Notes: generated by a model from the letters alone, not told the origin. Numbered from the stretch's first letter, positions 6,370 through 58,753 are shown. The stretch is 64,000 nucleotides of DNA from Bacteroidales bacterium (GCA_017551515.1 JAFZLK010000109.1:13863-77862), one strand, 5' to 3'. Numbers and translations: made by a program.

Positions 6370-6392
6370 ACAAATTGTTTGTGGTATATTTT

Positions 6393-6417
6393 AGGGGCAG
6401 GTCTAAAACCTGCCCCT
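6393..6417 (+). terminator. Terminator-like GC-rich hairpin after the 1528-aa gene
   Basis: 'AGGGGCAGGT-ctaaa-ACCTGCCCCT' forms a 10-bp perfect stem 24 nt after the stop codon. The downstream T-tract is weak. Confidence 0.5.
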
Positions 6418-6467
6418 AATTATATCCGCACTCTCAATCTTAATAAGCAACCTTTCCTAAATTTCAT

Positions 6468-6475
6468 TATCTTTG
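6468..6475 (+). promoter_or_regulatory. Candidate -7 box (TATCTTTG) upstream of lon
   Basis: The sequence matches TAnnTTTG exactly and is identical to the boxes in front of tRNA-Asn and rsfS in this window. It lies ~70 nt upstream of the lon ATG. Confidence 0.4.
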
Positions 6476-6545
6476 GCACACGGATTGCGCATATATGGTG
6501 CGCGATTAAAAATTAAAGATTAAGTGCCATTTTGACATATTTTTT

Positions 6546-38078: not shown

Positions 38079-38403
38079 ATTAAATAATTTATTCGTTTCA
38101 AACATTAAATTTCTCGTGAGGCAAGCATCTAAAAAGAAAACAATACCTCTAATAAATATAAAACGCGCAAACATACAAATTAGAATTCGATTTGACAAGA
38201 AAAAATAAAGAAATATACCTTATAAAAAACAAAAGAAATTCGAATGGATAATGAATAATTGACAATTTTTATGCGAACCAAAGGCAAAGCGAAACAAACT
38301 GAGGACTTTAGCTTTGCTGAGGTGATGCCCAAAATCATGTACAGAAAGGACATAATTAACAATTTTTAGCCTTGCAATGCATTGTGAGAACATATATTAT
38401 TTC

Positions 38404-38451
38404 AAACGGCGAAGCCATTGAAAAAGCGTCAGCGAGAAACGGGCGTAGCCC
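38404..38451 (-). repeat. Three units of the mini-palindrome+GTTTCT intergenic repeat family in reverse orientation
   Basis: The reverse complement reads 'GGGCTACGCCCGTTTCT CGCTGACGCTTTTTCA ATGGCTTCGCCGTTT'. The same words occur in the arrays at 47790-47960 and 54439-54539. Confidence 0.8.
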
Positions 38452-38510
38452 TTCAAACGACATCAACATCCTCATACCCTCCAAATCCGAAATTTCGTCC
38501 CAAATGCACA

Positions 38511-38567
38511 AAAACTTTTCGCCCCTCACAGAAAACTTCGCCCCTCATTTTAAAATTTCACCCCTAA
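38511..38567 (+). repeat. Three direct repeats (~16-17 nt, period 19-21 bp) upstream of the acyl-CoA ligase gene
   Basis: The three units are 'AAAACTTTTCGCCCCTCA', 'AAAACTTCGCCCCTCA' and 'AAAATTTCACCCCTAA'. Core copies lie at 38518-38528, 38537-38547 and 38557-38567. Confidence 0.8.
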
Positions 38568-38679
38568 AAATCGACTTTTACAACTGAAACACAACGCAAT
38601 GCCACATTTATTTTAACGGCACTTTTAAAGTGTATTCCTTTGCAGCGCAAAATTCAAAAACAATTTAAACAAAGAAAAA

Positions 38680-40299
38680 ATGATAAAGGAATTATTTGTT
38701 GATTATTACAAGAACGCAATTGTAAACAACTGGAATCTCCCTGCATTGCAGGACTACGACAACAAAGAATCAGTAATCACTTTCGGAAAATTAGGCAACA
38801 ATATATTAAGGTTGCACAAATTGTTCAAGGACTGTGGCATTAAGGAAAACGACAAAATTGTTCTCGTCGGCAAAAACTCAGTAAACTGGGGATGCGTTTA
38901 CCTCGCAGCAACAACCTACGGTGCAGTTATCGTCCCATTGCTTCAGGACTTTACACCTAAAGATATATACGCACTGACCAACCACTCGGATGCACGCTTG
39001 GCATTCGTTTCGGAATACATCTTAAACAAGATGGATGTCAGCAACTTCACAATCGTTGAAGAAATCTTCAAGCTAGACAACTTCGATTCTTACTACACTC
39101 GTAACGGCGAACAACACACCTACGATCGTAATATGCAAGAAGTTACCGCCAAGGATTTCACATTGCCAAACCTTCCAAACGACAAGTTAGGCGTAATCCT
39201 CTATACATCAGGAACATCGGGCAGTCCTAAGGGCGTAATGCTAACACTCAACGCACTTGCTGCTAACATAAAGTTCGCACGCGAGAACATGTTCCTCGTA
39301 AGTGGAGACAAGCTGGTTTCATTCCTACCGCTCGCACACTGCTACGGCTGTGCATTCGACTTCCTCTACCCGCTCACCGAAGGATGCCACATCATCTTCC
39401 TAGGTAAATTGCCGTCACCGCAGGTAATCCTCAAAGCATTCGGAGAATACAAGCCAAGACTTATCCTTTCGGTTCCGCTGATTCTCGAAAAAATCTACAA
39501 GGGTAAGATTAAGCCGACACTCGAAAAACCGGCAGTAAAGTTCATGACAAAAGTTCCTGGACTTCGCAGCCTCATCTACAGCAAGATACGTAAGACTTTG
39601 GAAGATGCATTCGGAGGCAACTTCATAGAGCTCATCCTTGGTGGTGCAAAGGTAAACCGCGAGGTAGAGACTTTCCTCAAGAAGATAGGCTTCCGCTTCA
39701 CTGTTGGTTACGGCATGACCGAATGCGGACCGCTTGTAGCTTACAGCGGTTGGAAGACCAATCCGATATTCGCCGCCGGCAAGCTGGTTGATTGTCTCGA
39801 AGCAAAGGTTGAATCAAGCGCTCCTGGCAAGATTGGCGAAATCCTTCTACGTGGCGAAAACATAATGTCGGGCTACTATAAGAATCCTGAAGAAACAGCA
39901 AGAGCACTCGACAGCGATGGCTGGCTCCACACAGGTGACCTTGGTCTTATCGACAAGGACGGCTTCATTTCGCTCAAGGGCCGCAGTAAGACCATGATTC
40001 TCACCAGCTCAGGACAAAATGTATATCCAGAAGAAATTGAATCAAGATTATGCAACTTCCCGTTAGTATCGGAATGCGTAGTTGTAAGCCGTGCTGCTAA
40101 GATAGTTTCGATAATCTACCCGAACCCCGACCTCACAAAGGGAATGTCGCCAGAGCAAATCGAAACCGAACTTGCTGAATACCAAAAACAAATAAATTCC
40201 GAAATGCCTGCCTATATGCAAATCAACAGAATACAGGTTCGCGACCAGGAATTTGAAAAAACGCCTAAAAAGAGTATCAAGAGATACCTATACGAATAA
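38680..40299 (+). CDS. AMP-dependent synthetase/ligase (long-chain fatty acid-CoA ligase-like)
   Basis: The AMP-binding motif 'YTSGTSGSPKGVML' is present, along with 'GYGMTE' and 'GWLHTGDLG'. The protein is 539 aa. Confidence 0.9.
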   Translation: MIKELFVDYYKNAIVNNWNLPALQDYDNKESVITFGKLGNNILRLHKLFKDCGIKENDKIVLVGKNSVNWGCVYLAATTYGAVIVPLLQDFTPKDIYALTNHSDARLAFVSEYILNKMDVSNFTIVEEIFKLDNFDSYYTRNGEQHTYDRNMQEVTAKDFTLPNLPNDKLGVILYTSGTSGSPKGVMLTLNALAANIKFARENMFLVSGDKLVSFLPLAHCYGCAFDFLYPLTEGCHIIFLGKLPSPQVILKAFGEYKPRLILSVPLILEKIYKGKIKPTLEKPAVKFMTKVPGLRSLIYSKIRKTLEDAFGGNFIELILGGAKVNREVETFLKKIGFRFTVGYGMTECGPLVAYSGWKTNPIFAAGKLVDCLEAKVESSAPGKIGEILLRGENIMSGYYKNPEETARALDSDGWLHTGDLGLIDKDGFISLKGRSKTMILTSSGQNVYPEEIESRLCNFPLVSECVVVSRAAKIVSIIYPNPDLTKGMSPEQIETELAEYQKQINSEMPAYMQINRIQVRDQEFEKTPKKSIKRYLYE

Positions 40300-40325
40300 T
40301 AACACACAACAAAAACTCCTAATGT

Positions 40326-40358
40326 AAAGCGCAGGCCTCCCAAGTCTGCGCTTTTTTT
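40326..40358 (+). terminator. Intrinsic terminator after the acyl-CoA ligase gene
   Basis: 'AAAGCGCAG-gcctcccaagt-CTGCGCTTT' forms a 9-bp stem followed by TTTTTTT. Confidence 0.75.
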
Positions 40359-40413
40359 GTGCAGATGTTGAAAACTAAAAATCAAACTAATCGTGACAAA
40401 CAAAAGAAGTTTA

Positions 40414-40421
40414 TAATTTTG
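40414..40421 (+). promoter_or_regulatory. Candidate -7 box (TAATTTTG) for the four-helix-bundle/dipeptidase/LysM operon
   Basis: The sequence matches TAnnTTTG and lies 20 nt upstream of the ATG at 40442. No clean -33 TTTG is present. Confidence 0.35.
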
Positions 40422-40441
40422 CAAAGCAAAAATTTCTTGTA

Positions 40442-41092
40442 ATGGACAATAACAATCAAAATAACCAAAATTGTTCAGAAGTTCGGAATATTCAGAATAA
40501 TCAGAATACTCCGAATACCTCTGAATCCAATACATTTCTCCCTCAGCATGGGCACTATCGCCACTTGCGAGTATATCAAGTTACAGAAATAATCTATGAT
40601 ATCACCTACTATTTCACACAAAAATACCTACGATTAGGCGACCGCACGATTGATCAAATGGTACAAGCTGCTCGCAGTGGCAAACAAAACATTGCAGAAG
40701 GCAACCAAGCAGCAGCCACATCAAGCGAAACTGAAATCAAATTAACCAATGTAGCAAAAGCAAGTTTGGAAGAACTATTAACCGACTACGAAGATTATTT
40801 GCGCGTACGCAATCTACAGCAATGGGGGCAATTACATCCACGATATGAAGCACTTCGCCAATATGCTCGTAGCGAAAAGATTATGCAAGACTATACACAA
40901 CAAATAAAACGCTTGAACGATGAAGAAATAGCCAATCTTTGCATTACTCTCATACATCAAGCTACATATCTATTACACAAGCTTTTAATCACAATGCAAA
41001 ACCGCTTTGTAACTGAAGGTGGCATAAAAGAACAAATGTATAACGCAAGAGCTAATTACCGTAACTCCATAAACAATAACAAAAAAGAATAA
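40442..41092 (+). CDS. Four-helix-bundle protein with a suffix domain (23S rRNA intervening-sequence protein family)
   Basis: 'YRHLRVYQ...IYDITYYF...DQMVQAARSGKQNIAEG' is the characteristic helix1-helix2/'NIAEG' core. The C-terminal extension 'ETEIKLTNVAKASLEELLTDYEDYLRVR...' is typical of the suffix-domain subfamily. The N-terminal ~30 aa are N/Q-rich low complexity. Confidence 0.8.
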   Translation: MDNNNQNNQNCSEVRNIQNNQNTPNTSESNTFLPQHGHYRHLRVYQVTEIIYDITYYFTQKYLRLGDRTIDQMVQAARSGKQNIAEGNQAAATSSETEIKLTNVAKASLEELLTDYEDYLRVRNLQQWGQLHPRYEALRQYARSEKIMQDYTQQIKRLNDEEIANLCITLIHQATYLLHKLLITMQNRFVTEGGIKEQMYNARANYRNSINNNKKE

Positions 41093-41096
41093 TAAT

Positions 41097-42728
41097 ATGA
41101 TAAAAAATTTTCTCACAGCAATAAGCCTTTGTGCAATGGCAACATTCGCCACCGCTCAAATCGACTATACCGACTGGGTTGGCAACTACCCAGACGGTTG
41201 CACAAGCATAACTGTTGGCAAAAAAGCCAGTGCCGACGGCTCGGTATTCACCTCGCACACCGACGACAGCCACCGCTCTAAGTCGGAATTCAACATAGAG
41301 CCTGCTCGCGACTACCCCAAAGGAACTACCAAGAAAATATACAAGCGCGTGTCGAAAAACATCTACGCAATGCCAACATACGAATTTGAGGAAATCGGTG
41401 AAATTCCGCAAGTTGCACATACATACCGCTATATAAACACAGCCTACCCCTGCATGAACGAAAAGCAACTCGGCATTGGCGAATCGACTTTCGGCGGACG
41501 CAAGTCACTGGTTTCAGAAAACGGACTAATCGACTGCACTCAACTTTGCCAACTTATGCTCGAGCGTTGCGCAACCGCACGCGAGGCCATAACATTAGCA
41601 GGTGAACTAATAAAGGAATACGGCTGGATTGATGTCGGCGAGTGCCTCACGATAGCCGATAAAAACGAAGTATGGCACCTTGAAATAATAGGTCCGGGCA
41701 AAGGCAAGAAAGGTGGAATCTGGGTTGCACAGCGCGTCCCCGACGACCACGTTGCCGTCAACGCCAACGCCAGCACCATCAAGCATATAGACTTGAAAAA
41801 CAGCGACATGTTCATGGCAAGCGAAAACATCTTCAAGATGGCTTTGGATTCGGGATGGTGCAAGTCGGAAGCCGATTTTCAATTCTGCCATGCCTACGCA
41901 CCCGAAAGTCGCAACAGCATAGCCGCCCGCCGCCGCGAATGGCGCGTGTTCGACCTTGTTGCACCGTCGCTAAAACTCGACTCCAACGACAAGGACTATC
42001 CATTTTCGGTAAAACCCGACAAACCAGTGACTTTGGAGCAACTTTCGATGATTTTCCGTGACTACTACGAAGGCACGCCCTACGACATAACCCACGCGCT
42101 AACCGTAACCGACAAAAACGGCAACGAAGTGATTTCGCCGATGGCAAACCCACAAATGCCATACGACCAAATGAAAATCGAGAATGTTCGCGGAAGCTGG
42201 TACGATGTCGATTCAAAAACTGGCAAAATTGAAATGCTCGGAGAACGCACAATAGCCCGCTGGTACACAATGTACGCCACAATTTTGCAATGTCGCTCGT
42301 GGTTGCCAGATGAAATAGGCGGTGTGGCTTGGATTGCCCTCGACAATGTTGCGACATCGATTTATGTGCCGTTTTACCCTCAAATCACGCAACTACCCAA
42401 ATGCTACGAAACACCCGGTCGTCCAAATGGTTACACACAGGAATCAGCTTGGTGGGCGTTCAACAGGTTGGGAACACTCACGCACCAGCGCTGGGGCGAC
42501 ATGCGCAAGGATGTAGTTGACGCAGTGTGGATTCCTTGGCAGAAAGAACTTTTCGACAACCAGCAGAACATTGAGGATGAAGCAAAAGCCTTGATGGACA
42601 AGAAGAACGGTCGCAAGGAAGCAATAGCCAAGTTGACCGAATATTCAAATATGTGGGGACAAAAAGTTGTTGACAAGGCATGGAAACTGGGCGATTTCCT
42701 TTGGACAAAATATGATGAAAAATTCTAA
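41097..42728 (+). CDS. C69-family dipeptidase, secreted
   Basis: The signal peptide 'MIKNFLTAISLCAMATFATAQ' is followed by 'DGCTSITVGKKASADGSVFTSHTDD', the N-terminal nucleophile Cys context of peptidase C69. The protein is 543 aa and starts 4 nt after the preceding stop. Confidence 0.88.
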   Translation: MIKNFLTAISLCAMATFATAQIDYTDWVGNYPDGCTSITVGKKASADGSVFTSHTDDSHRSKSEFNIEPARDYPKGTTKKIYKRVSKNIYAMPTYEFEEIGEIPQVAHTYRYINTAYPCMNEKQLGIGESTFGGRKSLVSENGLIDCTQLCQLMLERCATAREAITLAGELIKEYGWIDVGECLTIADKNEVWHLEIIGPGKGKKGGIWVAQRVPDDHVAVNANASTIKHIDLKNSDMFMASENIFKMALDSGWCKSEADFQFCHAYAPESRNSIAARRREWRVFDLVAPSLKLDSNDKDYPFSVKPDKPVTLEQLSMIFRDYYEGTPYDITHALTVTDKNGNEVISPMANPQMPYDQMKIENVRGSWYDVDSKTGKIEMLGERTIARWYTMYATILQCRSWLPDEIGGVAWIALDNVATSIYVPFYPQITQLPKCYETPGRPNGYTQESAWWAFNRLGTLTHQRWGDMRKDVVDAVWIPWQKELFDNQQNIEDEAKALMDKKNGRKEAIAKLTEYSNMWGQKVVDKAWKLGDFLWTKYDEKF

Positions 42729-42731
42729 GCA

Positions 42732-44174
42732 ATGTCGTTAAAACTCAGATACATAGTTACCATTTTGATAACCGCAATGCCCTTTTGCACGACATTCGCG
42801 CAAAAGGATTATGTATCATCGTTGAAAAAGAATCTCGGAGACTATAGTTCGCAATACATTGAAGCAAAAGTTGAATCCGCACCTGTAAGCGAGCATCTTT
42901 ATCCCAAAGTGCTTATCGAGGAAGAATCTTACACATTGACACAGAATGCAATATCATACTACGATGCAATATCGTCTCTACCAACCGAAACAAAAAACGC
43001 CATGCTGAAAGCGCATTCGGAAATTGCATTCTCTGCAGAAAAATCAGCCCTTTCCTCCTACCCAGATGAACTTTTGTGGCTTCCGTTTGCAATATCGGCA
43101 TTCAACAAAGACTACGAACAGGATGGTAATTGCGGATTCTGGGGCTTGCAATACCTATATGCAATAAAATACGGAGTAGAAATCAGCGAATGCACAGATG
43201 GTAGGCACGACATTTTGCTATCGACAAAGGCTGCAATCCGCCAGTTGCAATATTTCCACGAAAAATTTGAAAAATGGGACATAGCCTTGGCTGCCTACCT
43301 TTTCGGGCCATCGAACCTAAAGCTGATGCAAGTTCAAGGCAAGCAAACCTCCGAAATTTACACCTCGCTCGACCCTTACGGCAAGAATATTTTCGACATC
43401 TGGTGCGCAGTGATTTCGTGGGCGGAGAACTACAGGAACAGCAAAATCGAGATCAAGGAAATCGAACAGCAATACGACACCATCCGCATCTGCGACCGCA
43501 TTCATATTGAGCAGATTTCTAAAGTTATGGGCATAAGTATCAACGAACTAAAATCGCTCAACGCCACTTTCAGTTGTGAAGTAATTGACGGGCGAAGAAC
43601 ACCCGTAACATACAGACTGCCAGCAGGTCGCAAGGACGATTTTGCAACGCTTCACGACAGCATTGTGAAGTATAACGACACAATATACTTTCCGCCACCA
43701 AAAGCACCTGCCGAACCGAAAAACTATGTCGTAGAAGGCAACGGCGACAAGATTATATACACCATACAAAGTGGCGACTATTTGGGAAAAATTGCACAGA
43801 AGTTCGGTGTGAAAGTCAGCGACATACAAGCTTGGAACGGACTTAGCGGGACAAACATAACCGCAGGAAAAACTCTTATAATCTGGACTGGCAAAAAGTC
43901 GACACAAAGCAATCAAACTACGCAAACAAAGACAACTACAACAGCGCAAAAGCCTGCTACGCAATCAAACACAAGCACTTCCGGCTCTGCTACATTCAAC
44001 GCGAAGGACTATACCTTGGTTGAAACCTACACTGTAAAATCGGGTGACAATCCGTACAACATAGCCAAACGCTATAGTTGGGCAACAGCAGATGAAATTC
44101 TGAAATGGAACAACATCTCAGACCCATCAAAGTTACAGATTGGACAGAAACTAAAAATATACAAGAAGAAGTAA
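42732..44174 (+). CDS. LysM-domain peptidoglycan-binding protein with an MltD/SLT-like N-terminal domain
   Basis: Two C-terminal LysM motifs are present ('YTIQSGDYLGKIAQKFGVKVSDIQAWNGL' and 'YTVKSGDNPYNIAKRYSWATADEILKWNNI'). The N-terminal 'LPFAISAFN...GFWGLQY' resembles the SLT 'ES.FN...GLWQ' region. It starts 3 nt after the dipeptidase stop. Confidence 0.8.
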   Translation: MSLKLRYIVTILITAMPFCTTFAQKDYVSSLKKNLGDYSSQYIEAKVESAPVSEHLYPKVLIEEESYTLTQNAISYYDAISSLPTETKNAMLKAHSEIAFSAEKSALSSYPDELLWLPFAISAFNKDYEQDGNCGFWGLQYLYAIKYGVEISECTDGRHDILLSTKAAIRQLQYFHEKFEKWDIALAAYLFGPSNLKLMQVQGKQTSEIYTSLDPYGKNIFDIWCAVISWAENYRNSKIEIKEIEQQYDTIRICDRIHIEQISKVMGISINELKSLNATFSCEVIDGRRTPVTYRLPAGRKDDFATLHDSIVKYNDTIYFPPPKAPAEPKNYVVEGNGDKIIYTIQSGDYLGKIAQKFGVKVSDIQAWNGLSGTNITAGKTLIIWTGKKSTQSNQTTQTKTTTTAQKPATQSNTSTSGSATFNAKDYTLVETYTVKSGDNPYNIAKRYSWATADEILKWNNISDPSKLQIGQKLKIYKKK

Positions 44175-44302
44175 AAACGCGAAGATTCGCGAGCAAAAAA
44201 GAGACTTTATTTTACAAAAACTGCAGGAAACAATCGCATCTAACAAAGTTAACATTCTACAATTCAACAAATTGATTTTTTTGAAAAAAAGTAAAAAAAA
44301 TG

Positions 44303-44333
44303 TTTGTCAGTTAAAAATGATGTACTATCTTTG
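44303..44333 (+). promoter_or_regulatory. Bacteroidota sigma-A promoter for tRNA-Asn (TTTG-N19-TATCTTTG)
   Basis: TTTG lies at 44303-44306, followed by a 19-nt spacer and TATCTTTG at 44326-44333. The mature tRNA 5' end is 10 nt downstream. Confidence 0.65.
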
Positions 44334-44342
44334 CACCGCTTT

Positions 44343-44416
44343 TCCTCAGTAGCTCAGTTGGTTAGAGCACCTGACTGTTAATCAGGGGGTCGTAGGTTCA
44401 AGTCCTACCTGGGGAG
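44343..44416 (+). tRNA. tRNA-Asn (anticodon GTT)
   Basis: The cloverleaf was read by eye. The acceptor stem is TCCTCAG/CTGGGGA with one G-U pair. The D arm is GCTC-AGTTGGTTA-GAGC. The anticodon stem is CCTGA/TCAGG with loop CTGTTAA (anticodon GTT). The T arm is GTAGG-TTCAAGT-CCTAC. CCA is not encoded. Confidence 0.93.
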
Positions 44417-44420
44417 CAGA

Positions 44421-44449
44421 AAAAGACGGACTGAAATTCCGTCTTTTTT
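44421..44449 (+). terminator. Intrinsic terminator after tRNA-Asn
   Basis: 'AGACGGA-ctgaaat-TCCGTCT' forms a hairpin followed by TTTTT. Confidence 0.8.
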
Positions 44450-44567
44450 CGTTTATAATCAACACATTACAGAACCAATCTCTCAGAATTACATCAAATG
44501 TTCAGATTAGGAACTAACCTTAATTCTTTTTTAACAACCTTAACACTCAAAACTAACTAAAAATTAG

Positions 44568-44575
44568 TATCTTTG
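44568..44575 (+). promoter_or_regulatory. Candidate -7 box (TATCTTTG) for rsfS-ftsH-cdsA
   Basis: The sequence matches TAnnTTTG exactly and lies 20 nt upstream of the rsfS ATG. Confidence 0.45.
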
Positions 44576-44595
44576 TCCCCAAATTTTTAAATAGA

Positions 44596-44970
44596 ATGAG
44601 TAGATTTTCAGTAATAGAAGACACACAAAAACTGCTTGAAGTTATCAATCAAGCAATTCTTGACAAGAAAGGCGAAAATGTTGTCAATATGGACTTGCAA
44701 GCCATTGAAAACCACATTACAAAATATTTCGTAATATGCACAGCCAACTCGGTAATCCACGCCAATACGCTTGCCGACTACATCCGCTACCAGACACGTG
44801 GCACACTGAAGGAAAGACCATGGAAGGAAGAAGGATTCGAGAACAGCGAGTGGATTTTGATGGACTATGTTGACATTGTGGTACACATTTTCCTCCCCGA
44901 AGCACGCGAGTTCTACAAGCTCGAACAACTTTGGGCTGATGCAGAAACCAAATCTATAGAAAACAAATAA
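44596..44970 (+). CDS. rsfS: Ribosomal silencing factor RsfS (iojap family)
   Basis: The protein is 124 aa and carries 'NMDL...YFVICT..S..H...LAD' and 'W.LMDY.DIVVHIF', which are typical of RsfS. It sits immediately upstream of ftsH. Confidence 0.88.
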   Translation: MSRFSVIEDTQKLLEVINQAILDKKGENVVNMDLQAIENHITKYFVICTANSVIHANTLADYIRYQTRGTLKERPWKEEGFENSEWILMDYVDIVVHIFLPEAREFYKLEQLWADAETKSIENK

Positions 44971-44974
44971 GAAA

Positions 44975-47789: not shown

Positions 47790-48045
47790 GGCTACGCCCC
47801 TATGCCTACGGCGTTTCAATGGCTAAAGCCGTTTCTAAGTTTCTAGTTTCTATGGCTTCGCCGTTTCTACGCTGCGCTGTTTCTGGGTTTAAGGTTGTTT
47901 GAATGGCTACACCGTTTATACGCTAACGCTGTTTCTATGGGCTTACGCCCGTTTCTATGGTTCTATTGTCTAACAGTCTTGCTGTCTAATAGTCTCTTGG
48001 ACTTGTAGCATACTGCAGACCGCAAGACTGGTCTTCTGTTAGTCA
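47790..48045 (+). repeat. Mosaic intergenic repeat (mini-palindrome+GTTTCT units followed by GTCT-word octamers), filling the whole cdsA/lplA convergent spacer
   Basis: The units include 'GGGCTACGCCCC', 'GCCTACGGCGTTTCA', 'ATGGCTAAAGCCGTTTCT', 'ATGGCTTCGCCGTTTCT', 'ACGCTGCGCTGTTTCT' and 'GGGCTTACGCCCGTTTCT'. They are followed by 'TGTCTAAC AGTCTTGC TGTCTAAT AGTCTCTT ... CCGCAAGACTGGTCTTC'. Confidence 0.85.
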
Positions 48046-49023: not shown

Positions 49024-49195
49024 AATTTTTGGTTTCTAGTTTCTAAGTTTCTATGGCTAAAGCCGTTTCTAAGTTTCTGGGTTTCTAAGTTTATGGTTTC
49101 TATGGCTAAAGCCGTTTCTGAGTTTCTGGGTTTCTAAGTTTCTTGGTTTAAGGTTGTTTGAGATGGTTTCAAATGGTTTGAGATGGTTTTAAAGA
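49024..49195 (+). repeat. Mosaic intergenic repeat of the same family, including a 49-bp tandem duplication
   Basis: The two 49-bp copies at 49047-49095 and 49096-49144 ('GTTTCTATGGCTAAAGCCGTTTCT(A/G)AGTTTCTGGGTTTCTAAGTTT...') differ at 3 positions. The tail reads 'GGTTTAAGGTTGTTTGAGATGGTTTCAAATGGTTTGAGATGG'. Confidence 0.9.
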
Positions 49196-52575: not shown

Positions 52576-52674
52576 CTCCTAATCGAATTGGATTGCAAAA
52601 CTAAAAAAATATATTGTACCGCACAGAAATTTGTACGAATTTTATATGAAATCTTCCCGTATCGGAAAAATCGG

Positions 52675-53955
52675 CTACTTACGCCTTCTTTTCAGTACAT
52701 GCTTGAGAATAGTAAGTGTATGTATCTCATTGATAATGAGAATACCAAATGCAATAGCAACTGTCGCCTTCAACGCCCAGAAACCACTTGCAAGAGCGGC
52801 GGAATACTGGTCGGCAACTATGTTGTAGGCCGTCCAGAAAATGCCTGCACCAGGGACAAGCGGGAAAATGCCACATATAAGGAAAACTGCTAACGGGCAC
52901 TTCCTGATTATCGAAAACATTGTCGAGACAAATGCCACGAGAGCCGTTGAAAAGAAAACCGTCACAGCCATCGACATTGCCGTATATCTTGAAAGTACAA
53001 GATAAAGTAGCCAACCGAACATTCCTGCGAGTCCGCAGAAAATGTAATTTTTCCTCGGCACACCGAAAAGCACTGAAAACGCCAAAGTTCCTGCAAATGC
53101 CGATATTAATTGCACCGCAAATCCAGATGTCCCGCTATCAGCAGTAAGGTCCTGAAGTTCCTTCATTTGCCCCGAAATGCCTGCGTCAATCATAAACGAC
53201 ACCGCCACACCGATTGCAATACATAGGAAAGTAAGCATAGCATCGAGAAGTCGCGTAACACCGGCAATGTAGTCGGCATTTGCTATGTCGCGGATTCCGT
53301 TTGTGAACGGCACACCGGGAATCAAAGGGATTACCGCACCGATTATCATGTTGCTCAAGTGCGTGCCAAGTCCCATTGCGTACATTGCCATACAAAGTAG
53401 CGAAGCGAACAATCCGCCGACAAAATTGCCCATAATCCTCGACATGTACTTGAATCCAACGAAGAGCATGAAAGCCCACAGCAACATACCAGCAATAAAA
53501 GCTGCAATACAGTCGTAGAATCCACCACCAAACACAATACAAAAAGCAGCACTACCAACCGCAGAAGCTGCAATCTGCTCGACTATAGGTTTGGCTTTCA
53601 TACTGTGTATTTGCTTAAGCCTGCGTTCCGCTTCATCAAGGTCGCACTTGCCACCCTCTACATCGCGCGATAGTTGTTTCACCTCAACAACCTTATCAAG
53701 ACAGGTTCCCCGTATGGGAATGTATTTGGTACGCGCATAGGTTCTTTCGGTGGCCATGATGCCGTTACTGAGCACGAAGAAATTTTCATCATCGATGCCG
53801 AAATGCCTTGCAATGCGCGACATGGTCTCCTCAACATTCGAAATTTCGTCGCCATTTTCGAGCAGGATTGAACCGGCATCGTATGCCAAATCCATTATGC
53901 GCCTTCTTTCCGAAGTCGTCAACTCATCACTTTTGCAAGGTTTTGCTTCTTCCAT
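52675..53955 (-). CDS. Threonine/serine exporter family protein (fused ThrE + ThrE_2 halves)
   Basis: This is a 426-aa polytopic protein. After an N-terminal cytoplasmic segment it has ~10 hydrophobic helices. 'LL..GDEISNVEETM.RIA..FG' is typical of the ThrE/DUF1212 family. Confidence 0.8.
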   Translation of the reverse strand: MEEAKPCKSDELTTSERRRIMDLAYDAGSILLENGDEISNVEETMSRIARHFGIDDENFFVLSNGIMATERTYARTKYIPIRGTCLDKVVEVKQLSRDVEGGKCDLDEAERRLKQIHSMKAKPIVEQIAASAVGSAAFCIVFGGGFYDCIAAFIAGMLLWAFMLFVGFKYMSRIMGNFVGGLFASLLCMAMYAMGLGTHLSNMIIGAVIPLIPGVPFTNGIRDIANADYIAGVTRLLDAMLTFLCIAIGVAVSFMIDAGISGQMKELQDLTADSGTSGFAVQLISAFAGTLAFSVLFGVPRKNYIFCGLAGMFGWLLYLVLSRYTAMSMAVTVFFSTALVAFVSTMFSIIRKCPLAVFLICGIFPLVPGAGIFWTAYNIVADQYSAALASGFWALKATVAIAFGILIINEIHTLTILKHVLKRRRK

Positions 53956-53960
53956 AACTA

Positions 53961-54371
53961 CTATTTCTCAACACTTTCGCTTAGAACCTTGTATAATTCA
54001 GGCAGTCGCTTCGATATAGCCACTGGGCGATTGTTTTCAATGAAACAATGCGTACTTTGGGCTGTGCATACAATCCTGCCATTGACACGCATTATGTACG
54101 AAATTTCAAACTTTATCTCGCTGAACTTTCCCAACGACACCTCGATTTCAATAACATCCTTGAAAGTTGACGGACTTTTGTAGTTGCATGTCACCGAAAC
54201 TACGGGAGAAAATACGCCTTCCGCCTCAACCTTGTCGAAACCATAACCTAGCTGATCGAGCCAGTCGATTCGCGCCTCCTCCATGAAGCGAACATAGTTG
54301 GAATGATGCGTAACTCCCATCTTGTCACACTCGTAATACTTGACTTCGTGCCTGTATGTATGCATAAACAA
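53961..54371 (-). CDS. Acyl-CoA thioesterase, 4HBT/YbgC-FadM-like hotdog fold
   Basis: The 136-aa protein carries 'HEVKYYECDKMGVTHHSNYVRFMEEAR', the hotdog-fold active-site region with Asp. Confidence 0.85.
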   Translation of the reverse strand: MFMHTYRHEVKYYECDKMGVTHHSNYVRFMEEARIDWLDQLGYGFDKVEAEGVFSPVVSVTCNYKSPSTFKDVIEIEVSLGKFSEIKFEISYIMRVNGRIVCTAQSTHCFIENNRPVAISKRLPELYKVLSESVEK

Positions 54372-54416
54372 TGACTTAAAAATCGGTGCAAAGATAAGAT
54401 TTGTTTTTGTGATTAT

Positions 54417-54607
54417 GGTTTCTAATTTCTAGGTTTGAATGGCTTCGCCGTTTCTATGCCTACGGCGTTTCTCGCTGACGCGGTTTCTGTGCCTTCGGCG
54501 TTTCTATGGCTACGCCGTTTCTATGCCTTCGGCGTTTCTGGGTTTCTGAGTTTATAAGTTTCTGGTTGTTTGAAATGGTTTGAAAATTTGATGATTCAAT
54601 GATTCAA
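54417..54607 (+). repeat. Array of six contiguous 16-17-nt mini-palindrome+GTTTCT units plus flanking GTTTCT/GGTTTG/TGATTCAA octamer words
   Basis: The six units span 54439-54539: ATGGCTTCGCCGTTTCT, ATGCCTACGGCGTTTCT, CGCTGACGCGGTTTCT, GTGCCTTCGGCGTTTCT, ATGGCTACGCCGTTTCT and ATGCCTTCGGCGTTTCT. They are followed by GGGTTTCT GAGTTTAT AAGTTTCT GGTTGTTTGAAATGGTTTGAAAATTTGA TGATTCAA TGATTCAA. Confidence 0.9.
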
Positions 54608-54660
54608 AAAAAACGGAATGTCATGCTGGACTTGTTTCAGCATCTGATTCCGTTTTTTTT
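54606..54660. terminator. Strong bidirectional intrinsic-terminator-shaped hairpin located inside a divergent promoter region
   Basis: The sequence is A8-CGGAAT-gtc-ATGCTG-gacttgttt-CAGCAT-ctg-ATTCCG-T8. It forms two 6-bp helices plus a pairable A8/T8 extension. Confidence 0.6.
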
Positions 54661-54668
54661 GGTTATTC

Positions 54669-54705
54669 ATTTGTAGGGTCGTTGCGCGCAACGACTTCCA
54701 CAAAT
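54669..54705. repeat. Palindromic hairpin element (18-bp perfect palindrome with 6-bp outer arms)
   Basis: 'GTCGTTGCGCGCAACGAC' (54678-54695) is a perfect palindrome. The outer arms 'ATTTGT' (54669-74) and 'ACAAAT' (54700-05) also pair. Confidence 0.8.
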
Positions 54706-54740
54706 TGAATGATGGCAGTGTTTGAAAGGATTTAATGTTG

Positions 54741-54815
54741 TTTGATGATTCGATAATTTGATGATTCAAAGATTTGATATTCGATGATTTGATGGTTCAA
54801 AAATTTAATGATTTG
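54741..54815 (+). repeat. About 4.5 tandem copies of a 16-bp AT-rich unit (TTTGATGATTCRAWRA) directly upstream of the COG0523 gene
   Basis: The copies read TTTGATGATTCGATAA, TTTGATGATTCAAAGA, TTTGATATTCGATGA, TTTGATGGTTCAAAAA and TTTAATGATTTG. Confidence 0.85.
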
Positions 54816-54830
54816 TTTCTGGTTAATTTT

Positions 54831-54838
54831 TAATTTTG
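54831..54838 (+). promoter_or_regulatory. Candidate -7 box (TAATTTTG) for the COG0523 GTPase gene
   Basis: The sequence matches TAnnTTTG and lies 18 nt upstream of the ATG at 54857. The nearest TTTG (54812-15) gives only a 15-nt spacer. Confidence 0.4.
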
Positions 54839-54856
54839 CACAAAAATTCAAAGACA

Positions 54857-56083
54857 ATGAAAAACGACATACCTGTACTATTACTCACTGGCTACTTGGG
54901 TAGCGGAAAAACCACTTTGGTAAACAACATACTTTCGAACAAAAAAGGCATTAAGTTCGCAGTGATAGTGAACGACATAGGCGAAGTAAACATCGATGCC
55001 GACCTCATCGAAAAAGGCGGAATTGTAGGGCAGAAAGACGACAGTCTTGTGGCATTGCAAAATGGTTGTATCTGCTGTACACTGAAAATGGACTTGGTGG
55101 AGCAACTCACCGAAATTGTCAGCCAGCATAAGTTCGACTATATAGTTATTGAAGCAAGCGGAATATGCGAACCTCAGCCAATTGCTCAGACAATATGCTC
55201 AATACCAAGTCTCGAAGAAAAATACACGCGACATGGAGTGCCTTACCTCGACTGCATTGTCACAGTTGTGGATGCCCTGCGCATGAAAGACGAATTCGGT
55301 TGTGGCGAAAGTCTTACAAAAAAGCATATTGCCGAAGATGATTTGGAAAACCTTGTTATTCAACAAATTGAATTCTGCAACATCATATTGCTGAACAAAT
55401 CATCGGAAATAAACGAGGAAGAACGCAACCGCCTGAAAGAAATAATACGGGCAATACAATCCAAGGCACAAATCATTGAATGCGATTATGGGAATATTGA
55501 CCTCGAAGAAATTCTCTACACTGGAAGTTTCGATTATGAAAATACAGCAACTTCGGCAACTTGGGTACGAGAAATAGAGGACATTCACGATGACGATGAT
55601 GACGAAGATGAACACGAACACGAGCATCACGATCATCACGAAGAACATGAGCATGAACACCATCATCACGACCATGAGCACCACCATCACGACCACGAAG
55701 GCGGAGAAACAGAAGAATACAACATTAGCACATTCGTCTATAAGGCACGCCGACCGTTCAACCTTGGTCGTTTCGATGACTTTGTAGCACGCAAGATGCC
55801 AAAGAACATAATCAGATGCAAAGGAATGTGCTATTTCAAGGATGAATTCGATGTATGCTATTTGTTTGAACAGGCAGGAAAACAAATCAGTCTGCGCAAT
55901 GTAGGTCAGTGGTTCGCCACCATGCCCGACGATGAACTCGAAGATTTCATCCTGCGCAATCCTGCAATACTTCGCGACTGGGACGACACCTACGGCGACC
56001 GTATGCAGAAACTGGTGTTCATCGGTCAGAATATGGACAAGGAAAAGATTCGCGAAGATTTGGATTTATGTTTGACGGAATAA
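54857..56083 (+). CDS. COG0523/CobW-family GTPase (putative zinc metallochaperone) with a His/Asp/Glu-rich insert
   Basis: The P-loop 'GYLGSGKTTL' and the metal-binding motif 'GCICCTL' are present. A His-rich tract, 'DDDDDEDEHEHEHHDHHEEHEHEHHHHDHEHHHHDHEGGE', precedes the CobW C-terminal domain. I prefer the ATG at 54857 to the TTTG-rich TTG at 54836. Confidence 0.9.
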   Translation: MKNDIPVLLLTGYLGSGKTTLVNNILSNKKGIKFAVIVNDIGEVNIDADLIEKGGIVGQKDDSLVALQNGCICCTLKMDLVEQLTEIVSQHKFDYIVIEASGICEPQPIAQTICSIPSLEEKYTRHGVPYLDCIVTVVDALRMKDEFGCGESLTKKHIAEDDLENLVIQQIEFCNIILLNKSSEINEEERNRLKEIIRAIQSKAQIIECDYGNIDLEEILYTGSFDYENTATSATWVREIEDIHDDDDDEDEHEHEHHDHHEEHEHEHHHHDHEHHHHDHEGGETEEYNISTFVYKARRPFNLGRFDDFVARKMPKNIIRCKGMCYFKDEFDVCYLFEQAGKQISLRNVGQWFATMPDDELEDFILRNPAILRDWDDTYGDRMQKLVFIGQNMDKEKIREDLDLCLTE

Positions 56084-56145
56084 TTTTTTCTTCCGTATCA
56101 TAAATTTTATTATCTTGCGTTTTTATTTTGCACATACGATATAAT

Positions 56146-57642
56146 ATGAAGAAAACAATATTATTCACCATTGCGTTATGCATGATTTTTGTGGCAAAAT
56201 CCTTTGCTGGACTTGAAGTTTACTTTATGTACACAAAGTTCAATTCGCCACAAGGTCAATACATTGAAACATACATGAGCACTATAGGCAGTTCTACTGT
56301 CCTAAAGGAAATCGGCAACGGAAAATTCCAATCGGAAATTGAAATTGTAATGATTTTCAAGATTGGCGATTCAATTGCGAACTTTGAAAAGTATGTGCTT
56401 CGCAGTCCTGAAATTGCAGATACAACCGGAGTAATCCCCAATTTCATTGATGTACAGCGCATAAACCTGCCAAACGGCAAATACACCTTCGACATCAGCA
56501 TACGCGACATCAACAGCGACAAACCACCATACTGCTTCTCCGACAACATTGTCATGGATTTCAATGACGAAGTGAAATTCAGCGACATAGAACTTGTCGA
56601 AAGCTACTCGAAAGCATCTGGCGAATCATCAATAACAAAGAGCGGATACGAACTTGTGCCGTATGTAGCAAATTTCTTTCCCGAAAACATGAACTCGCTG
56701 AAATTCTACATCGAGGCATACAACACCAACAAGGCACTCAACGATGACTTCATGCTGAAATACCACATTGACGACTATCAGTCGGGCAAAGAAATGCCAC
56801 AATGCAGTCGATTCAAAAAAATGAAGCCCGCCGAAGTCGTTCCATTTATCGGAGAACTGAACATTGAGAAACTTCCTAGCGGCAACTACAACCTTGTGGT
56901 AGAAATTGTCAACAGGAACAACGAAACTGTAACCAAGAGCGTTTACTTCTTCCAAAGGCAGAACCAAAGTACATTCAGCAACGAGGAATACGAAGCACGG
57001 GCGCGACAGTTCGACCTCAACAACACATTTGCCGGCGACTTAAACTCACGCGACTCGCTTGTATATTACCTCAAGTCGATGCGTCCAATTGCGACAATAT
57101 ACGAACGTCCTTTCATTGACAATCAGTTACGCAAAGCTGATTTGGCAACATTGCAGAAATATTTTGTTGAATTTTGGGTTAAACGCAACTATGTGAATCC
57201 CGAAAACGAATGGTATCAATACAAACTGCAAGTTGAGAAAGTTGAGAAAAACTACGCAACCACTATCCGCCACGGCTTCGAAACCGACAGAGGCGTGATA
57301 TATCTGCAATACGGTGTTCCGAACCATATTTACCAATCGCCAATAGAACCTGGTGCCTACCCATACGAAATATGGCAGTACTACCGACTTGGCGAGGACA
57401 ACAACTGCAAGTTCGTCTTCTACAACCCAAGCATGGAAGGACATGAATACGAACTGCTTCACTCGAACAAGCAAGGCGAAATACATACCTTCAACTGGAC
57501 ACGCTACCTATCGCGTAGCAAAACAACATCATACGGAATTTCTGATACATACAATTCGGTTGACAACGCCTCATCGGGATACGGACAAAACACTTTCAAT
57601 AACGATTGGGAACGCCGTGCTATAGAAGAATTTAACAAATAA
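56146..57642 (+). CDS. GWxTD-domain protein (function unknown), secreted
   Basis: I take the ATG at 56146, which gives 'MKKTILFTIALCMIFVAKSFA' as the signal peptide. The C-terminal region 'FW..R......NEWYQY...V....Y......GFETDRGVIYLQYGVPN......E.......YEIWQY......KFVFYN.....EYELLHSN' fits the GWxTD domain pattern, with a GFETD variant of the motif. Confidence 0.75.
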   Translation: MKKTILFTIALCMIFVAKSFAGLEVYFMYTKFNSPQGQYIETYMSTIGSSTVLKEIGNGKFQSEIEIVMIFKIGDSIANFEKYVLRSPEIADTTGVIPNFIDVQRINLPNGKYTFDISIRDINSDKPPYCFSDNIVMDFNDEVKFSDIELVESYSKASGESSITKSGYELVPYVANFFPENMNSLKFYIEAYNTNKALNDDFMLKYHIDDYQSGKEMPQCSRFKKMKPAEVVPFIGELNIEKLPSGNYNLVVEIVNRNNETVTKSVYFFQRQNQSTFSNEEYEARARQFDLNNTFAGDLNSRDSLVYYLKSMRPIATIYERPFIDNQLRKADLATLQKYFVEFWVKRNYVNPENEWYQYKLQVEKVEKNYATTIRHGFETDRGVIYLQYGVPNHIYQSPIEPGAYPYEIWQYYRLGEDNNCKFVFYNPSMEGHEYELLHSNKQGEIHTFNWTRYLSRSKTTSYGISDTYNSVDNASSGYGQNTFNNDWERRAIEEFNK

Positions 57643-57646
57643 CAAC

Positions 57647-58567
57647 ATGACACCTAACATTTTAGAAGGCAGTAAAGCCAAATACATATACTTCCCCGAA
57701 GAACAGGACACCATAATAAGCCGTTCGAACTATGCAACTTTGTATGTTGGCGCAAATGCCGATACAAAGGAGAAAGTAGTCCTGAAAAAAATCTCCACGA
57801 CACTGTTCGGAAACGATGCACAACGGTTCAAGTTCTTCGCTACAGTATGCAACGAAGTTAAAAATGACGGACTTGTAAGCATTGAGGACATGATTTTTGA
57901 TGGAAGCGACATCTACCTTGTATGCAAATTTGTATCGGGACGCACTTTGAAGGAACTGATTTACGACCCAAAATTCATGGATTATCGCAACGATATTTTC
58001 TTCCTGCGCATAATTGCAAACTGCCTCGAAACTTTGTCGTACCTACACAAGCTAAAACTTTGCCACGGAAACTTAACTCCTGAAAACATCATAGTGCAAT
58101 GGGACGAATGCGAAGAATTTGACTTCATGTACCCGACAACAAAGATTTTAAGCATCGAAAGCATCAAGCTGGGATTCAAGAACATGCCACTCTTACGCAA
58201 AGTTTCCGACACACGATACCAAAGTCCAGAACAAGTAATTGGGTTCGAGGATTTAGTTGGCGACTACAGCGATACATACAGCATGGGACTTATAATGTAC
58301 GAAGCATTGGCAAGGGAACCTGTTTTTCCAACCGACAAGCCAATCGTAAAACGGCAACAGGTGTTCGGCAAGATCGAACAGCACTACCGCATTAGCGACG
58401 AAGCACACGCAATCATATCGAAAGCGACAGTGCGTCCACTGCCATTCGTTCCAGGAGCAATTAGCGACAATGCACAAAAAATTATGGTACTCAAGGCATT
58501 GAACGACAGGTATCAGTCAGTGGAAGTTTTCAAAAAGGAATTGGACGAACTAATAGAAAACATATAA
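57647..58567 (+). CDS. Protein-kinase-fold protein, probably a pseudokinase
   Basis: The VAIK-like 'KVVLKKI' is present. The catalytic-loop position reads 'LCHGNLTPENIIV' (HGN in place of HRD). 'YQSPEQ' is APE-like, and 'DTYSMGLIMYEAL' is subdomain IX-like. No GxGxxG or DFG motif is recognisable. The gene starts 4 nt after the GWxTD gene stop. Confidence 0.65.
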   Translation: MTPNILEGSKAKYIYFPEEQDTIISRSNYATLYVGANADTKEKVVLKKISTTLFGNDAQRFKFFATVCNEVKNDGLVSIEDMIFDGSDIYLVCKFVSGRTLKELIYDPKFMDYRNDIFFLRIIANCLETLSYLHKLKLCHGNLTPENIIVQWDECEEFDFMYPTTKILSIESIKLGFKNMPLLRKVSDTRYQSPEQVIGFEDLVGDYSDTYSMGLIMYEALAREPVFPTDKPIVKRQQVFGKIEQHYRISDEAHAIISKATVRPLPFVPGAISDNAQKIMVLKALNDRYQSVEVFKKELDELIENI

Positions 58568-58590
58568 ATGGATAATGGACAATTAATGAT

Positions 58591-58753
58591 GGGCTAAAAG
58601 GCTAGCAGGCTGAAAGGCTAACAGGCTGAAAGGCTAACAGTCTTGCGGAAGACCAGACGAACAGCTTACCAGACCGTTAGACAGTGAGCCTGCAAGACAA
58701 AATCAGCTTTATGGTTTTAAGCCTTCAAGCCCCAAAAACAAAAACATAGAAAC
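58591..58753 (-). repeat. Octamer-phased intergenic repeat related (in reverse orientation) to the tail of the 47790-48045 element
   Basis: Six in-phase octamers, GGCTAAAA GGCTAGCA GGCTGAAA GGCTAACA GGCTGAAA GGCTAACA, span 58592-58639, and the 16-mer GGCTGAAAGGCTAACA occurs twice. G......A octamers then continue: GTCTTGCG GAAGACCA GACGAACA GCTTACCA GACCGTTA GACAGTGA GCCTGCAA. The reverse complement shares 'CCGCAAGACTG', 'GGTCTTC', 'TGTCTAAC' and 'GTTTCTATG' with 47940-48040. Confidence 0.85.

Follow-up and report, generated by a model that had tools for sequence, protein, structure and literature searches.

Introduction

Repetitive extragenic palindromic (REP) sequences, bacterial interspersed mosaic elements (BIMEs), neisserial intergenic mosaic elements (NIMEs), and short tandemly repeated repetitive (STRR) sequences are well known in Proteobacteria and cyanobacteria. 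NIMEs consist of units of 50–150 bp bounded by 20-bp dRS3 inverted repeats, and the STRR sequences of cyanobacteria are plain heptamers without hairpins. For gut Bacteroidales, little comparable has to our knowledge been described besides the elements of Porphyromonas that resemble MITEs (miniature inverted-repeat transposable elements). In this study, a family of short hairpin modules, termed bricks, was analyzed, which occurs as arrays in the intergenic spacers of a 64,000-nucleotide stretch from a Bacteroidales bacterium (GCA_017551515.1, JAFZLK010000109.1:13863-77862; the window) and of related genomes.

REP families are composed of units of 20–40 bp with stems of 5–13 bp and a GTAG or CGTC tag, and the GTAG/CGTC repeats comprise alternative complementary stems inside one family (PMC3733652). 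The BrickBuilt MITE of Porphyromonas gingivalis is present in about 20 intergenic copies, contains 23-nt direct repeats between a leader and a tail, and is transcribed (PMC4596501). A further group of small hairpins is formed by the extraordinarily stable DNA mini-hairpins GCGNAGC, GCGNNAGC, and CCGAAGG, in which two G–C pairs are combined with a sheared G·A pair; the Hirao review gives melting temperatures of 70–76 °C (PMC13037366). CCGAAGG is mentioned there as an example in the ssiA priming signal of RSF1010, and the known natural mini-hairpins are single ones, located at priming sites of single-stranded DNA phages and plasmids and at promoters of phage N4 (PMC13037366).

Structure and constraint of the repeat unit

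The grammar of the repeats was parsed from the window and 24 related loci. The sense of an array is given as the strand reading GTTTCT; the opposite strand is referred to as the AGAAAC strand. The brick is a polar module consisting of 5'-[A/G]T, a hairpin with a G+C stem of 3–5 bp and a loop of 3–4 nt, and the tag GTTT[C/G][T/A]-3'. The bricks are arranged head-to-tail, with hairpin-less GTTTCTNN octamers interspersed among them. GGC/GCC is the commonest stem; GCC/GGC, GGGC/GCCC, GTGC/GCAC, and CGC/GCG occur as well, together with an additional class of 2-bp stems, CGCTNCGCT, whose complement AGCGNAGCG includes GCGNAGC. An original prediction, made from the sequence of the window alone, had proposed such a core unit, and every stem variant listed there is present. 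The unit size of 16–17 nt given at that time does occur, but the full range is 16–20 nt and is set by the length of stem and loop.

The closing pair of the stem is invariably 5'-C:G-3'. The 87 loops of 3 nt are TTC (44), TGC (31), TAC (11), and one other sequence, so that 86 of them read T-N-C on the GTTTCT strand; loops of 4 nt are TAAA (18), TGAC (11), TGGC (6), TAAC (4), and TTAC (2). Hairpins with a polarity opposite to that of the tag were not found in any of the copies parsed. The tag GTTT[C/G][T/A] is the most invariant part in every brick and word. The base preceding the hairpin is T in about 80% of the bricks compared with about 20% of the hairpin-less octamers. The array ends are degenerate tails, in which GTTTAAGGTT and GTTTGARATG are followed by ATGATTCA or GTCTNNNN/GGCTNNNA words. 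Tandem Repeats Finder returned periods of 8, 16–17, and 49 nt in the arrays, and of 10 nt for the TGGTTTGAGA words. The proposed 8-nt phasing therefore applies to the GTTTCTNN, ATGATTCA, and GGCTAACA words, whereas a 10-nt period was returned for the GGTTTG words (49144–49189).

Motif counts in the window were compared with shuffled sequences. GCCGTTTCT was found 7 times (0.4 expected), the 17-mer ATGGCTWCGCCGTTTCT with up to three mismatches 10 times (0.21 expected), and GTTTCTNNGTTTCT with up to one mismatch 14 times (0.48 expected). No shuffle was as high in any of the three cases, and the arrays are therefore not due to chance; the related repeats predicted at five loci are all present as described. 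In coding sequence, only one chance GCCGTTTCT was detected. The intervals of 9–14 nt between successive GTTT motifs contain a hairpin of at least 3 bp directly abutting the tag in 53% of the cases, compared with 8.7% in shuffles (maximum 13.6%). When the hairpin end was shifted by 1, 2, or 3 nt from the tag, the proportion was 18%, 2.5%, and 0.7% of the intervals, respectively.

In the 59 distinct 23-mers, 80% of the cells paired, compared with 58% after shuffling, and none of 500 shuffles reached this value; the middle stem pair was GC in 20 and CG in 17 of these sequences. Counted over all copies, this pair is G–C 80 times, C–G 38 times, and non-complementary 8 times (GG 1, CC 0), which makes the compensatory stem changes, first noticed in a few bricks, real and general. 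Stem mismatches comprise two of the G/T and four of the A/C type. Because the arms covary, the closing pair is fixed, and the loop ends are polar, the hairpin is constrained as an intrastrand structure.

The arrays had been regarded as non-coding, in part because of stop codons. This argument does not hold, since bricks on the GTTTCT strand are free of stop codons, but the conclusion does: the reading frame rotates, and no protein conservation was found. A 36-codon open reading frame (ORF) running from an ATG through array D of the window (described below) was rejected as coding, since every 17-nt brick shifts its frame and conservation is lacking.

Resemblance to DNA mini-hairpins

Read as a repeat of the AGAAAC strand, a brick corresponds, for example, to d(AGAAAC-GGCGAAGCC-AT)n. 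The hairpins of this strand are C(GAA)G, C(GCA)G, C(GTA)G, C(GTCA)G, C(GCCA)G, C(GTTA)G, and C(GTAA)G, and many of them include GCGAAGC, GCGCAGC, GCGTAGC, CCGAAGG, or GCGTCAGC. A sequence rule for mini-hairpins, which comprises a C:G closing pair, a G-N-A or G-N-N-A loop, and at least two G–C pairs, describes 86 of the 87 triloops and 23 of the 43 tetraloops; most of the tetraloops breaking it are TAAA (18). With such a closing pair and loop in nearly every AGAAAC-strand brick, the family resembles the described DNA mini-hairpins. Unlike these, the bricks form dispersed chromosomal tandem arrays, which are not among the natural examples in the available part of the review (PMC13037366). The rule and the fixed polarity point to single-stranded DNA no less than to RNA, and DNA is favored as the folded form by the rule-following tetraloops, most of which are not GNRA, and by the 2-bp CGCTNCGCT class, which is meaningful only as a DNA mini-hairpin. 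We infer that a single-stranded DNA mini-hairpin of the AGAAAC strand would be the better-fitting structure.

Distribution and inheritance of the family

A total of 185,579 species-representative genomes were scanned with the pattern GTTTCTATG-N8-12-GTTTCTATG-N8-12-GTTTCT, in which the stems were left unspecified. The brick family was identified in 23 of the 61 matches; the other 38 are unrelated simple repeats. All 23 are from Bacteroidales/Bacteroidia metagenome-assembled genomes (MAGs) of yak, buffalo, cattle, and deer guts, and about ten brick-bearing MAGs are involved (RGIG9953, RGIG8173, RGIG8023, RGIG9689, RUG14538, RUG13567, RUG13712, UBA1184, Red_deer_4_mag_224, and ruminal_MAG_341). 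The Lon protease encoded in the window is 96% identical to that of RGIG9953, which places the window in the brick-bearing clade. Hairpin-plus-tag units were counted 156 times in 165 kb of family loci and 14 times in the window, compared with one in 327 kb of lplA loci from distant Bacteroidetes and three in 283 kb of the matches outside the family.

The same or a near-identical strain is present in four gut metagenomes containing the window, and its arrays are unchanged where covered. In these metagenomes, the contig depth rises 6- to 10-fold over the arrays. Between 27 and 45 partly overlapping contigs were obtained per metagenome run, and the listed junction contigs have about the depth of the window genome, which indicates dozens more arrays in the same genome. 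The motif is thus not confined to the window, as its occurrence in related MAGs and the further copies in the metagenomes demonstrate. A search against Rfam 15 returned only a tRNA above threshold and nothing in the arrays at E ≤ 1. A phage or plasmid origin was rejected: no family member was found among the eight viral-contig matches in IMG/VR, and phage and plasmid records gave no blastn match. No paper describing these motifs was found. The family is lineage-specific to a clade of uncultured herbivore-gut Bacteroidales.

Comparison of orthologous spacers indicates that the arrays are inherited vertically, with a fast turnover at the level of bricks and a vocabulary that is constant across species. 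Two related loci, L043 and L056, have the segment GTTTCT-ATGCCTGCGGC-GTTTCT-ATGGCTG(G/A)CGCC-GTTTCT in common and differ by insertions, deletions, and replacements of whole bricks; their homology ends downstream of the array. In L069, whose lplA product is 88% identical, both lplA spacers contain arrays, but with differing bricks, and in L068 (93%), the lplA spacers hold other words, GAACGTTAAAC. Bricks of the GGC/GCC and GCC/GGC types alternate slightly above expectation (39 vs. 33, P ~0.016), and adjacent bricks of these two types can pair to form an inter-brick stem of 5–6 bp, which is preferred by the standard fold. Duplication of a multi-brick block was detected in array C of the window (49-nt period, 90% identity).

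In two comparisons, L043 (2266–2376) with L056 (4187–4323) and the window with L068 on the 3' side of lplA, homology and gene order end at the array. This hints that the arrays might mark or mediate rearrangement breakpoints.

Placement relative to genes

All arrays are located strictly between called genes, as judged from gene calls on the parent metagenome contig. With respect to the GTTTCT strand, the spacer contexts are convergent (10), antisense co-directional (8), sense co-directional (6), and divergent (5), and the orientation relative to the gene on the 5' side is 16 versus 15. A rule linking array and gene orientation was sought across the spacer contexts and not found. Of the convergent spacers, 11 of 22 are occupied by an array; for co-directional and divergent spacers, the numbers are 14 of 57 and 6 of 20, respectively. 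These counts are biased because the loci were chosen for their array. The array heads are flush against the neighboring gene, and the arrays extend until coding sequence is reached. In 12 of the 16 arrays with an upstream gene on the same strand, the array starts at most 25 nt past the stop codon; in the window and in L038, L046, and L056, it starts exactly at the stop codon (TAG followed by GGC...).

Transcript-boundary functions and multi-hairpin small RNAs (sRNAs) had been put forward as possible roles. Neither gained support, as sense, antisense, convergent, and divergent placements show no orientation preference, the stems are below the criteria for intrinsic terminators, namely a G+C-rich stem of at least 5 bp with a T-run behind it in the sense of the upstream gene, with one weak site called in all arrays, and no sRNA-like family or structure was found. 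An enrichment of sigma-70 promoters or terminators was likewise not detected in a scan that did not extend to Bacteroidetes-type promoters. An RNA cis-element dedicated to the neighboring genes would not be expected to be placed without regard to orientation, and the best reading is that the family is not a dedicated cis-regulatory RNA of its neighbors.

Comparison with known elements and interpretation

The family resembles BIMEs and REPs in combining a short palindrome with a conserved tag on one side, in having sub-families with alternative complementary stems, and in being a mosaic with other motifs that is extragenic, of high copy number, present in both orientations, and lineage-specific. 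With NIMEs and STRR sequences, it has in common the lineage-specific, non-coding intergenic arrays of short units drawn from a limited vocabulary at many loci. The occurrence in Bacteroidales, the intergenic location, and the internal tandem short direct repeats are reminiscent of BrickBuilt. Unlike REPs, which are typically inverted pairs linked to REP-associated tyrosine transposases (RAYTs), the bricks are ordered head-to-tail, their stems measure 2–5 bp within hairpins of 7–13 nt, and the hairpin is preceded by [A/G]T and followed by the tag GTTT[C/G][T/A], which corresponds neither to GTAG nor to CGTC. Unlike BrickBuilt, the arrays lack terminal inverted repeats (TIRs), their tails are word repeats, and their units are hairpins. 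The 25 ORFs of the window and the eight MAG ORFs scanned contained no domain of a Y1/RAYT or any other transposase, no inverted-repeat pair flanks any array, and inspection of the array ends revealed no target-site duplication. An assignment to REP/BIME or MITE elements is contradicted by the small stem size, the deviating tag, the uniform direction of the bricks, and the lack of TIRs and of a transposase in the scanned ORFs, even though the family works in a similar way to those elements. A CRISPR array, in which direct repeats of 24–48 bp alternate with unique spacers of similar size near a leader or cas genes, was rejected as well: the "repeat" would be a 6-nt tag, the intervals of 9–14 nt are taken from a small hairpin vocabulary, and no cas domains were found nearby. 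Together with the negative Rfam search, this bears out the initial judgment that the repeats are not of a described REP/BIME, MITE, or CRISPR type. The arrays are also no plain micro- or minisatellite, since brick types are mixed and neighbors are not most alike, although the octamer stretches alone do qualify as such.

With a probability of roughly one half, we consider the family to be a BIME/NIME-like mosaic in which the brick is kept as a single-strand hairpin, likeliest as DNA of the AGAAAC strand, and which is spread by recombination or slippage at its tags. In this case, the folded species would be single-stranded DNA of the AGAAAC strand, and recombination or slippage among tags, aided by the hairpins, would account for both spread and maintenance. 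The family would then be a self-propagating or neutral filler, tolerated in untranslated regions (UTRs) and spacers, and any influence on transcripts, for instance through weakly structured 3' or 5' UTRs, would be secondary. In a clade of abundant uncultured Bacteroidales of the ruminant gut, the spacers are thus filled with structured repeats, and no smaller hairpin than their brick is known to be stable as DNA. Provided that folding takes place in vivo, the hairpins would be a natural system for studying chromosomal roles of mini-hairpins in replication, recombination, nuclease resistance, and at transcript ends. The arrays break short-read assemblies, two of those compared coincide with gene-order differences downstream between relatives, and they could be used as strain and species markers.

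Several results weigh against a DNA hairpin spread in this way. Nearest-neighbor DNA parameters gave only −1.4 to −2.4 kcal/mol per hairpin, with equal values for both strands; the extra stability of mini-hairpins is a literature value outside these standard parameters. Folding as RNA is more favorable for the GUUUCU strand (−4.1 to −5.3 kcal/mol) than for the other strand (−2.8 to −4.9 kcal/mol), because the [A/G]U prefix and the GU of the tag extend its stem to 5 bp (U·G, A–U/G·U), and these wobble pairs are impossible on the AGAAAC strand. Loops of the TAAA type, which read TTTA in the complement, are frequent and break the G...A rule. GGA loops, which rank second in stability in the literature, are absent here. 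Array sequence was detected at gene-like depth in metatranscriptome contigs from bovine gut, so the arrays are probably transcribed; these contigs, which cover the arrays of the related locus L053, are unstranded and may include DNA, and no RNA runs containing the window were found. As to a polarity relative to the replication strand, the GC skew is negative over the whole window, and arrays B, C, and D would place the GNA hairpin on the presumed lagging-strand template. The sign of the local GC skew is split 15 versus 17 among 32 arrays, a weak test on 8-kb pieces, and opposite array orientations occur within single spacers (L005, L008, and L043), so that such a polarity is unsupported. Slippage by one brick was rejected as the main mode of growth, as identical neighboring bricks were found in 11 of 87 cases with about 10.5 expected. 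Finally, identical 17-mers are present at unrelated loci and in different species, which requires a dispersal or homogenizing mechanism.

A first alternative is a cis-acting RNA element, which we regard as rather unlikely. Its hairpin of 5 bp (three G–C pairs, U·G, and A–U/G·U) followed by UUCU could pause RNA polymerase, attenuate read-through, or block 3'–5' exonucleases, as has been reported for REPs, and in the opposite sense the arrays would form A-rich, lightly structured leaders. The extension of the stem by wobble pairs between the tag and the conserved prefix (−4.1 to −5.3 kcal/mol), the preference for T before the hairpin in bricks over octamers, the start of 12 of 16 arrays within 25 nt of an upstream stop codon, the most frequent occupation of convergent spacers, the necessarily transcribed array C, and the array sequence in metatranscriptome contigs would all be in accordance with this function. 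However, the orientation is random to genes (6 sense vs. 8 antisense; 16 vs. 15), the stems are too weak for intrinsic terminators, the loops are neither UNCG nor GNRA, and RNA of the 2-bp CGCTNCGCT class would stay unfolded; moreover, stem mismatches show no preference for wobble pairs (G/T 2 vs. A/C 4), the spacer-type counts were ascertained on array-bearing loci, and the metatranscriptome is unstranded and may contain DNA. It appears distinctly unlikely that the arrays are strings of single-stranded DNA mini-hairpins for which a dedicated machinery acting on single-stranded DNA exists as writer or reader. Such arrays might serve as priming or restart signals that exclude single-stranded DNA-binding protein, or as substrate and product of an HUH- or primase-like enzyme copying bricks between spacers; if true, the GCGNAGC mini-hairpin would here be employed for the first time as a dispersed signal on a chromosome.

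Two further explanations, a plain protein site in duplex DNA and unconstrained slippage, are at odds with a hairpin that is polar and covaries. Duplex sites would consist of GTTTCT tags with or without CGSCG flanks, 8 or 17 bp apart, bound by a nucleoid-associated protein, gyrase, or the machinery for DNA uptake or recombination, or of words resembling DNA uptake sequences (DUS) or uptake signal sequences (USS) that accumulate by drive. Uptake sequences described so far occur mostly singly or as inverted pairs, and genes contain them as well. The invariance of the tag, the orientation-neutral intergenic placement, the vocabulary kept across species while arrays turn over, and the lack of a transposase in the scanned ORFs would suit this explanation, but it gives no reason for covarying arms with a polar loop, spacings of 8 and 17 bp are out of helix phase, no candidate protein was found, competence is not known from this clade, and the brick family, unlike uptake words, is absent from coding sequence except for one chance GCCGTTTCT; we therefore consider it improbable. 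Degenerate or miniature REPs, for which a RAYT/HUH tyrosine transposase or a parent insertion sequence of the MITE type elsewhere in the genome would provide mobility, are to be doubted to a similar degree. They would explain the hairpin with its one-sided tag and the alternative complementary stems, as in GTAG/CGTC repeats, as well as the dispersal needed for identical bricks at unrelated loci, and REP-like elements do co-occur with the arrays (window 54673–54695; GTAC(A) elements beside arrays in related MAGs), as does a PIN-like/antitoxin-like cassette bracketed by two arrays in L053. The stems of 2–5 instead of 5–13 bp, the GTTTCT tag, the head-to-tail order instead of inverted doublets, the absence of TIRs and visible target-site duplications, and the lack of a transposase domain in the 25 and eight ORFs speak against them. 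Highly improbable, finally, is cryptic simplicity without constraint, that is, satellites made by slippage whose palindromes are accidental results of shared ancestry. The grading into pure octamer and decamer words, the block duplications, and the rapid turnover among close relatives would be expected of such satellites; yet the arms are complementary in 118 and not complementary in 8 copies, over several independent stem types, the loop ends are fixed while the middle and the length vary, the vocabulary is kept in about ten species, and identical neighbors are not in excess.

The arrays of the window and their gene neighborhood

The window contains intergenic arrays in five spacers and one relic. 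In a repeat search, arrays B, C, and D formed direct-repeat families with a tail block common to all three, and 38404–38441, which belongs to array A, was identified as their reverse complement. The neighbors of the arrays are unrelated housekeeping genes encoding an AMP-binding enzyme, FtsH, CdsA, LplA, a TonB-dependent receptor with its DUF4249 partner, ThrE, a thioesterase, CobW, a Ser/Thr kinase, and a LOG-family protein.

Array A (38402–38458, minus strand) comprises the three bricks GGGCTACGCCC-GTTTCT, CGCTGACGCT-TTTTCA, and ATGGCTTCGCC-GTTTGA and is located in the divergent spacer between a giant ORF and the gene of the AMP-binding enzyme. The relic, AACAACCTTAA... (44533–44554, minus strand), is derived from a tail module in the spacer between a tRNA gene and rsfS and is 77% complementary to 49137–49158. 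The body of array B (47790–47956, plus strand) includes about eight hairpin bricks and GTTTCTNN words; its first base is the G of the cdsA stop codon (TAG, then GGCTACGCCC). In the tail of array B (47957–48045, plus strand), four 8-nt GTCTNNNN words are followed by an imperfect long inverted repeat, CTAACAGTCTTGC ... GCAAGACTGG..CTGTTAG. This tail runs as far as the lplA stop codon and is partly conserved 3' of lplA in L068 and L072.

The body of array C (49024–49143, plus strand) consists of GTTTCTNN octamers and two ATGGCTAAAGCC bricks and contains the 49-nt higher-order duplication with 90% identity mentioned above. It lies 15 nt upstream of the start codon of lplA, which is encoded on the opposite strand, and is therefore within the lplA transcript. 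The tail (49144–49195, plus strand) is made up of the 10-nt phased TGGTTTGAGA words and reaches the stop codon of the DUF4249 gene. Array D occupies the spacer that separates the divergent genes of the thioesterase and CobW. Its body (54417–54563, plus strand) starts with six hairpin bricks in succession, with the stems GGC/GCC, GCC/GGC, CGC/GCG, GCC/GGC, GGC/GCC, and GCC/GGC, and continues with octamers; its tail (54564–54607, plus strand) contains 10-nt GTTTGAAATG words and then 8-nt ATGATTCA words.

Locus E (58591–58753, mixed strand sense) is composed of 8-nt GGCTNNNA words on the plus strand, a segment containing CAGTCTTGCGG, and AAAC-type words, which represent the GTTTCT tag in reverse. 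The kinship proposed for this region holds for the word modules and for the 11-mer CAGTCTTGCGG, which is also present in the tail of array B, but not for the hairpin bricks, none of which occur here. The word modules of locus E were also found 3' of an array in L055.

The divergent spacer of array A also contains two copies and a degenerate third of the direct repeat AAAACTT(T)TCGCCCCTCA (38520–38570). The giant ORF adjoining this spacer is the second of a tandem (11411–24349 and 25233–38174, both minus strand), with deduced products of about 4,312 and 4,313 amino acids. The second one has a clear match to DUF5018 and otherwise faint or weak Pfam matches, including a weak one to Por_Secre_tail, a sorting domain of the type IX secretion system (T9SS). 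A protein of 1,528 amino acids with cleaved-adhesin, B-repeat, and Por_Secre_tail (T9SS) domains is encoded at 1783–6369 and forms a cluster of very large surface proteins together with the giant ORFs. Between the genes of the AMP-binding enzyme and a peptidase C69, an ORF of 216 amino acids (40442–41092) matched, below the threshold, the 23S rRNA-intervening-sequence proteins, a family of the four-helix-bundle type.

Companion elements in the spacers

Several other modules recur in the spacers beside the arrays, and the spacers are therefore true mosaics. Directly after array D, an A-tract, a long interrupted hairpin, and a T-tract (54605–54661, strand not assigned) form an element resembling a bidirectional terminator, AAAACGGAAT...ATTCCGTTTT. 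Homologues adjoin arrays in L069 (3' of lplA) and L029 (~6880–6960), and the element looks like a dispersed family of putative bidirectional terminators. Its inner loop is variable; in L029, it holds "ccctgagc...gtcgaaggg" words. At 54673–54695 (plus strand), GTAG is combined with an 18-nt perfect palindrome, GTCGTTGCGCGCAACGAC, in a REP-like arrangement. In related MAGs, hairpins of 8–10 bp followed by GTAC(A) usually stand directly after the last brick of an array; such sites are located in L003 (~5100–5160 and 2560–2660), L053 (4366–4420 and 5317–5430), L010, and L030. These REP-like elements may point to a RAYT-type system in the clade.

Tandem TTTGATGATTCAAAAA words with periods of 16 and 31 nt (54741–54813, plus strand) are akin to the tail of array D and lie directly upstream of the CobW gene; they may represent an array of the operator type or simply belong to the mosaic of word repeats. 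The CobW/COG0523 gene itself (54857–56083) contains a His-rich low-complexity stretch (CAT/CAC repeats, 55589–55699). The module GGTTTAACTTCGTTGAG-GGCTTCGCC-GTTCT recurs beside arrays in related genomes. In the spacers of L071, L116, L011, and L029, arrays and hairpins have CTGAGCCTGTCGAAGGG / CCCTTCGACAAGCTCAG words nested in them or next to them. These words, which form inverted repeats, GTCGAAGGG ... CCCTTCGAC, represent another dispersed repeat vocabulary of the same genomes.

Upstream of lon in RGIG9953, L053 contains an insert of 1.5 kb (3949–5518) at a position where the window has a plain spacer of 176 bp (6370–6545). The insert comprises an array, REP-like hairpins, a PIN-like fragment, an antitoxin-like ORF of 76 amino acids, a second array, and CAAATCMT octamer words. 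At position 4738 of L053, one base is missing in RNA and DNA contigs of other runs, and the split of the PIN ORF may be an assembly frameshift.

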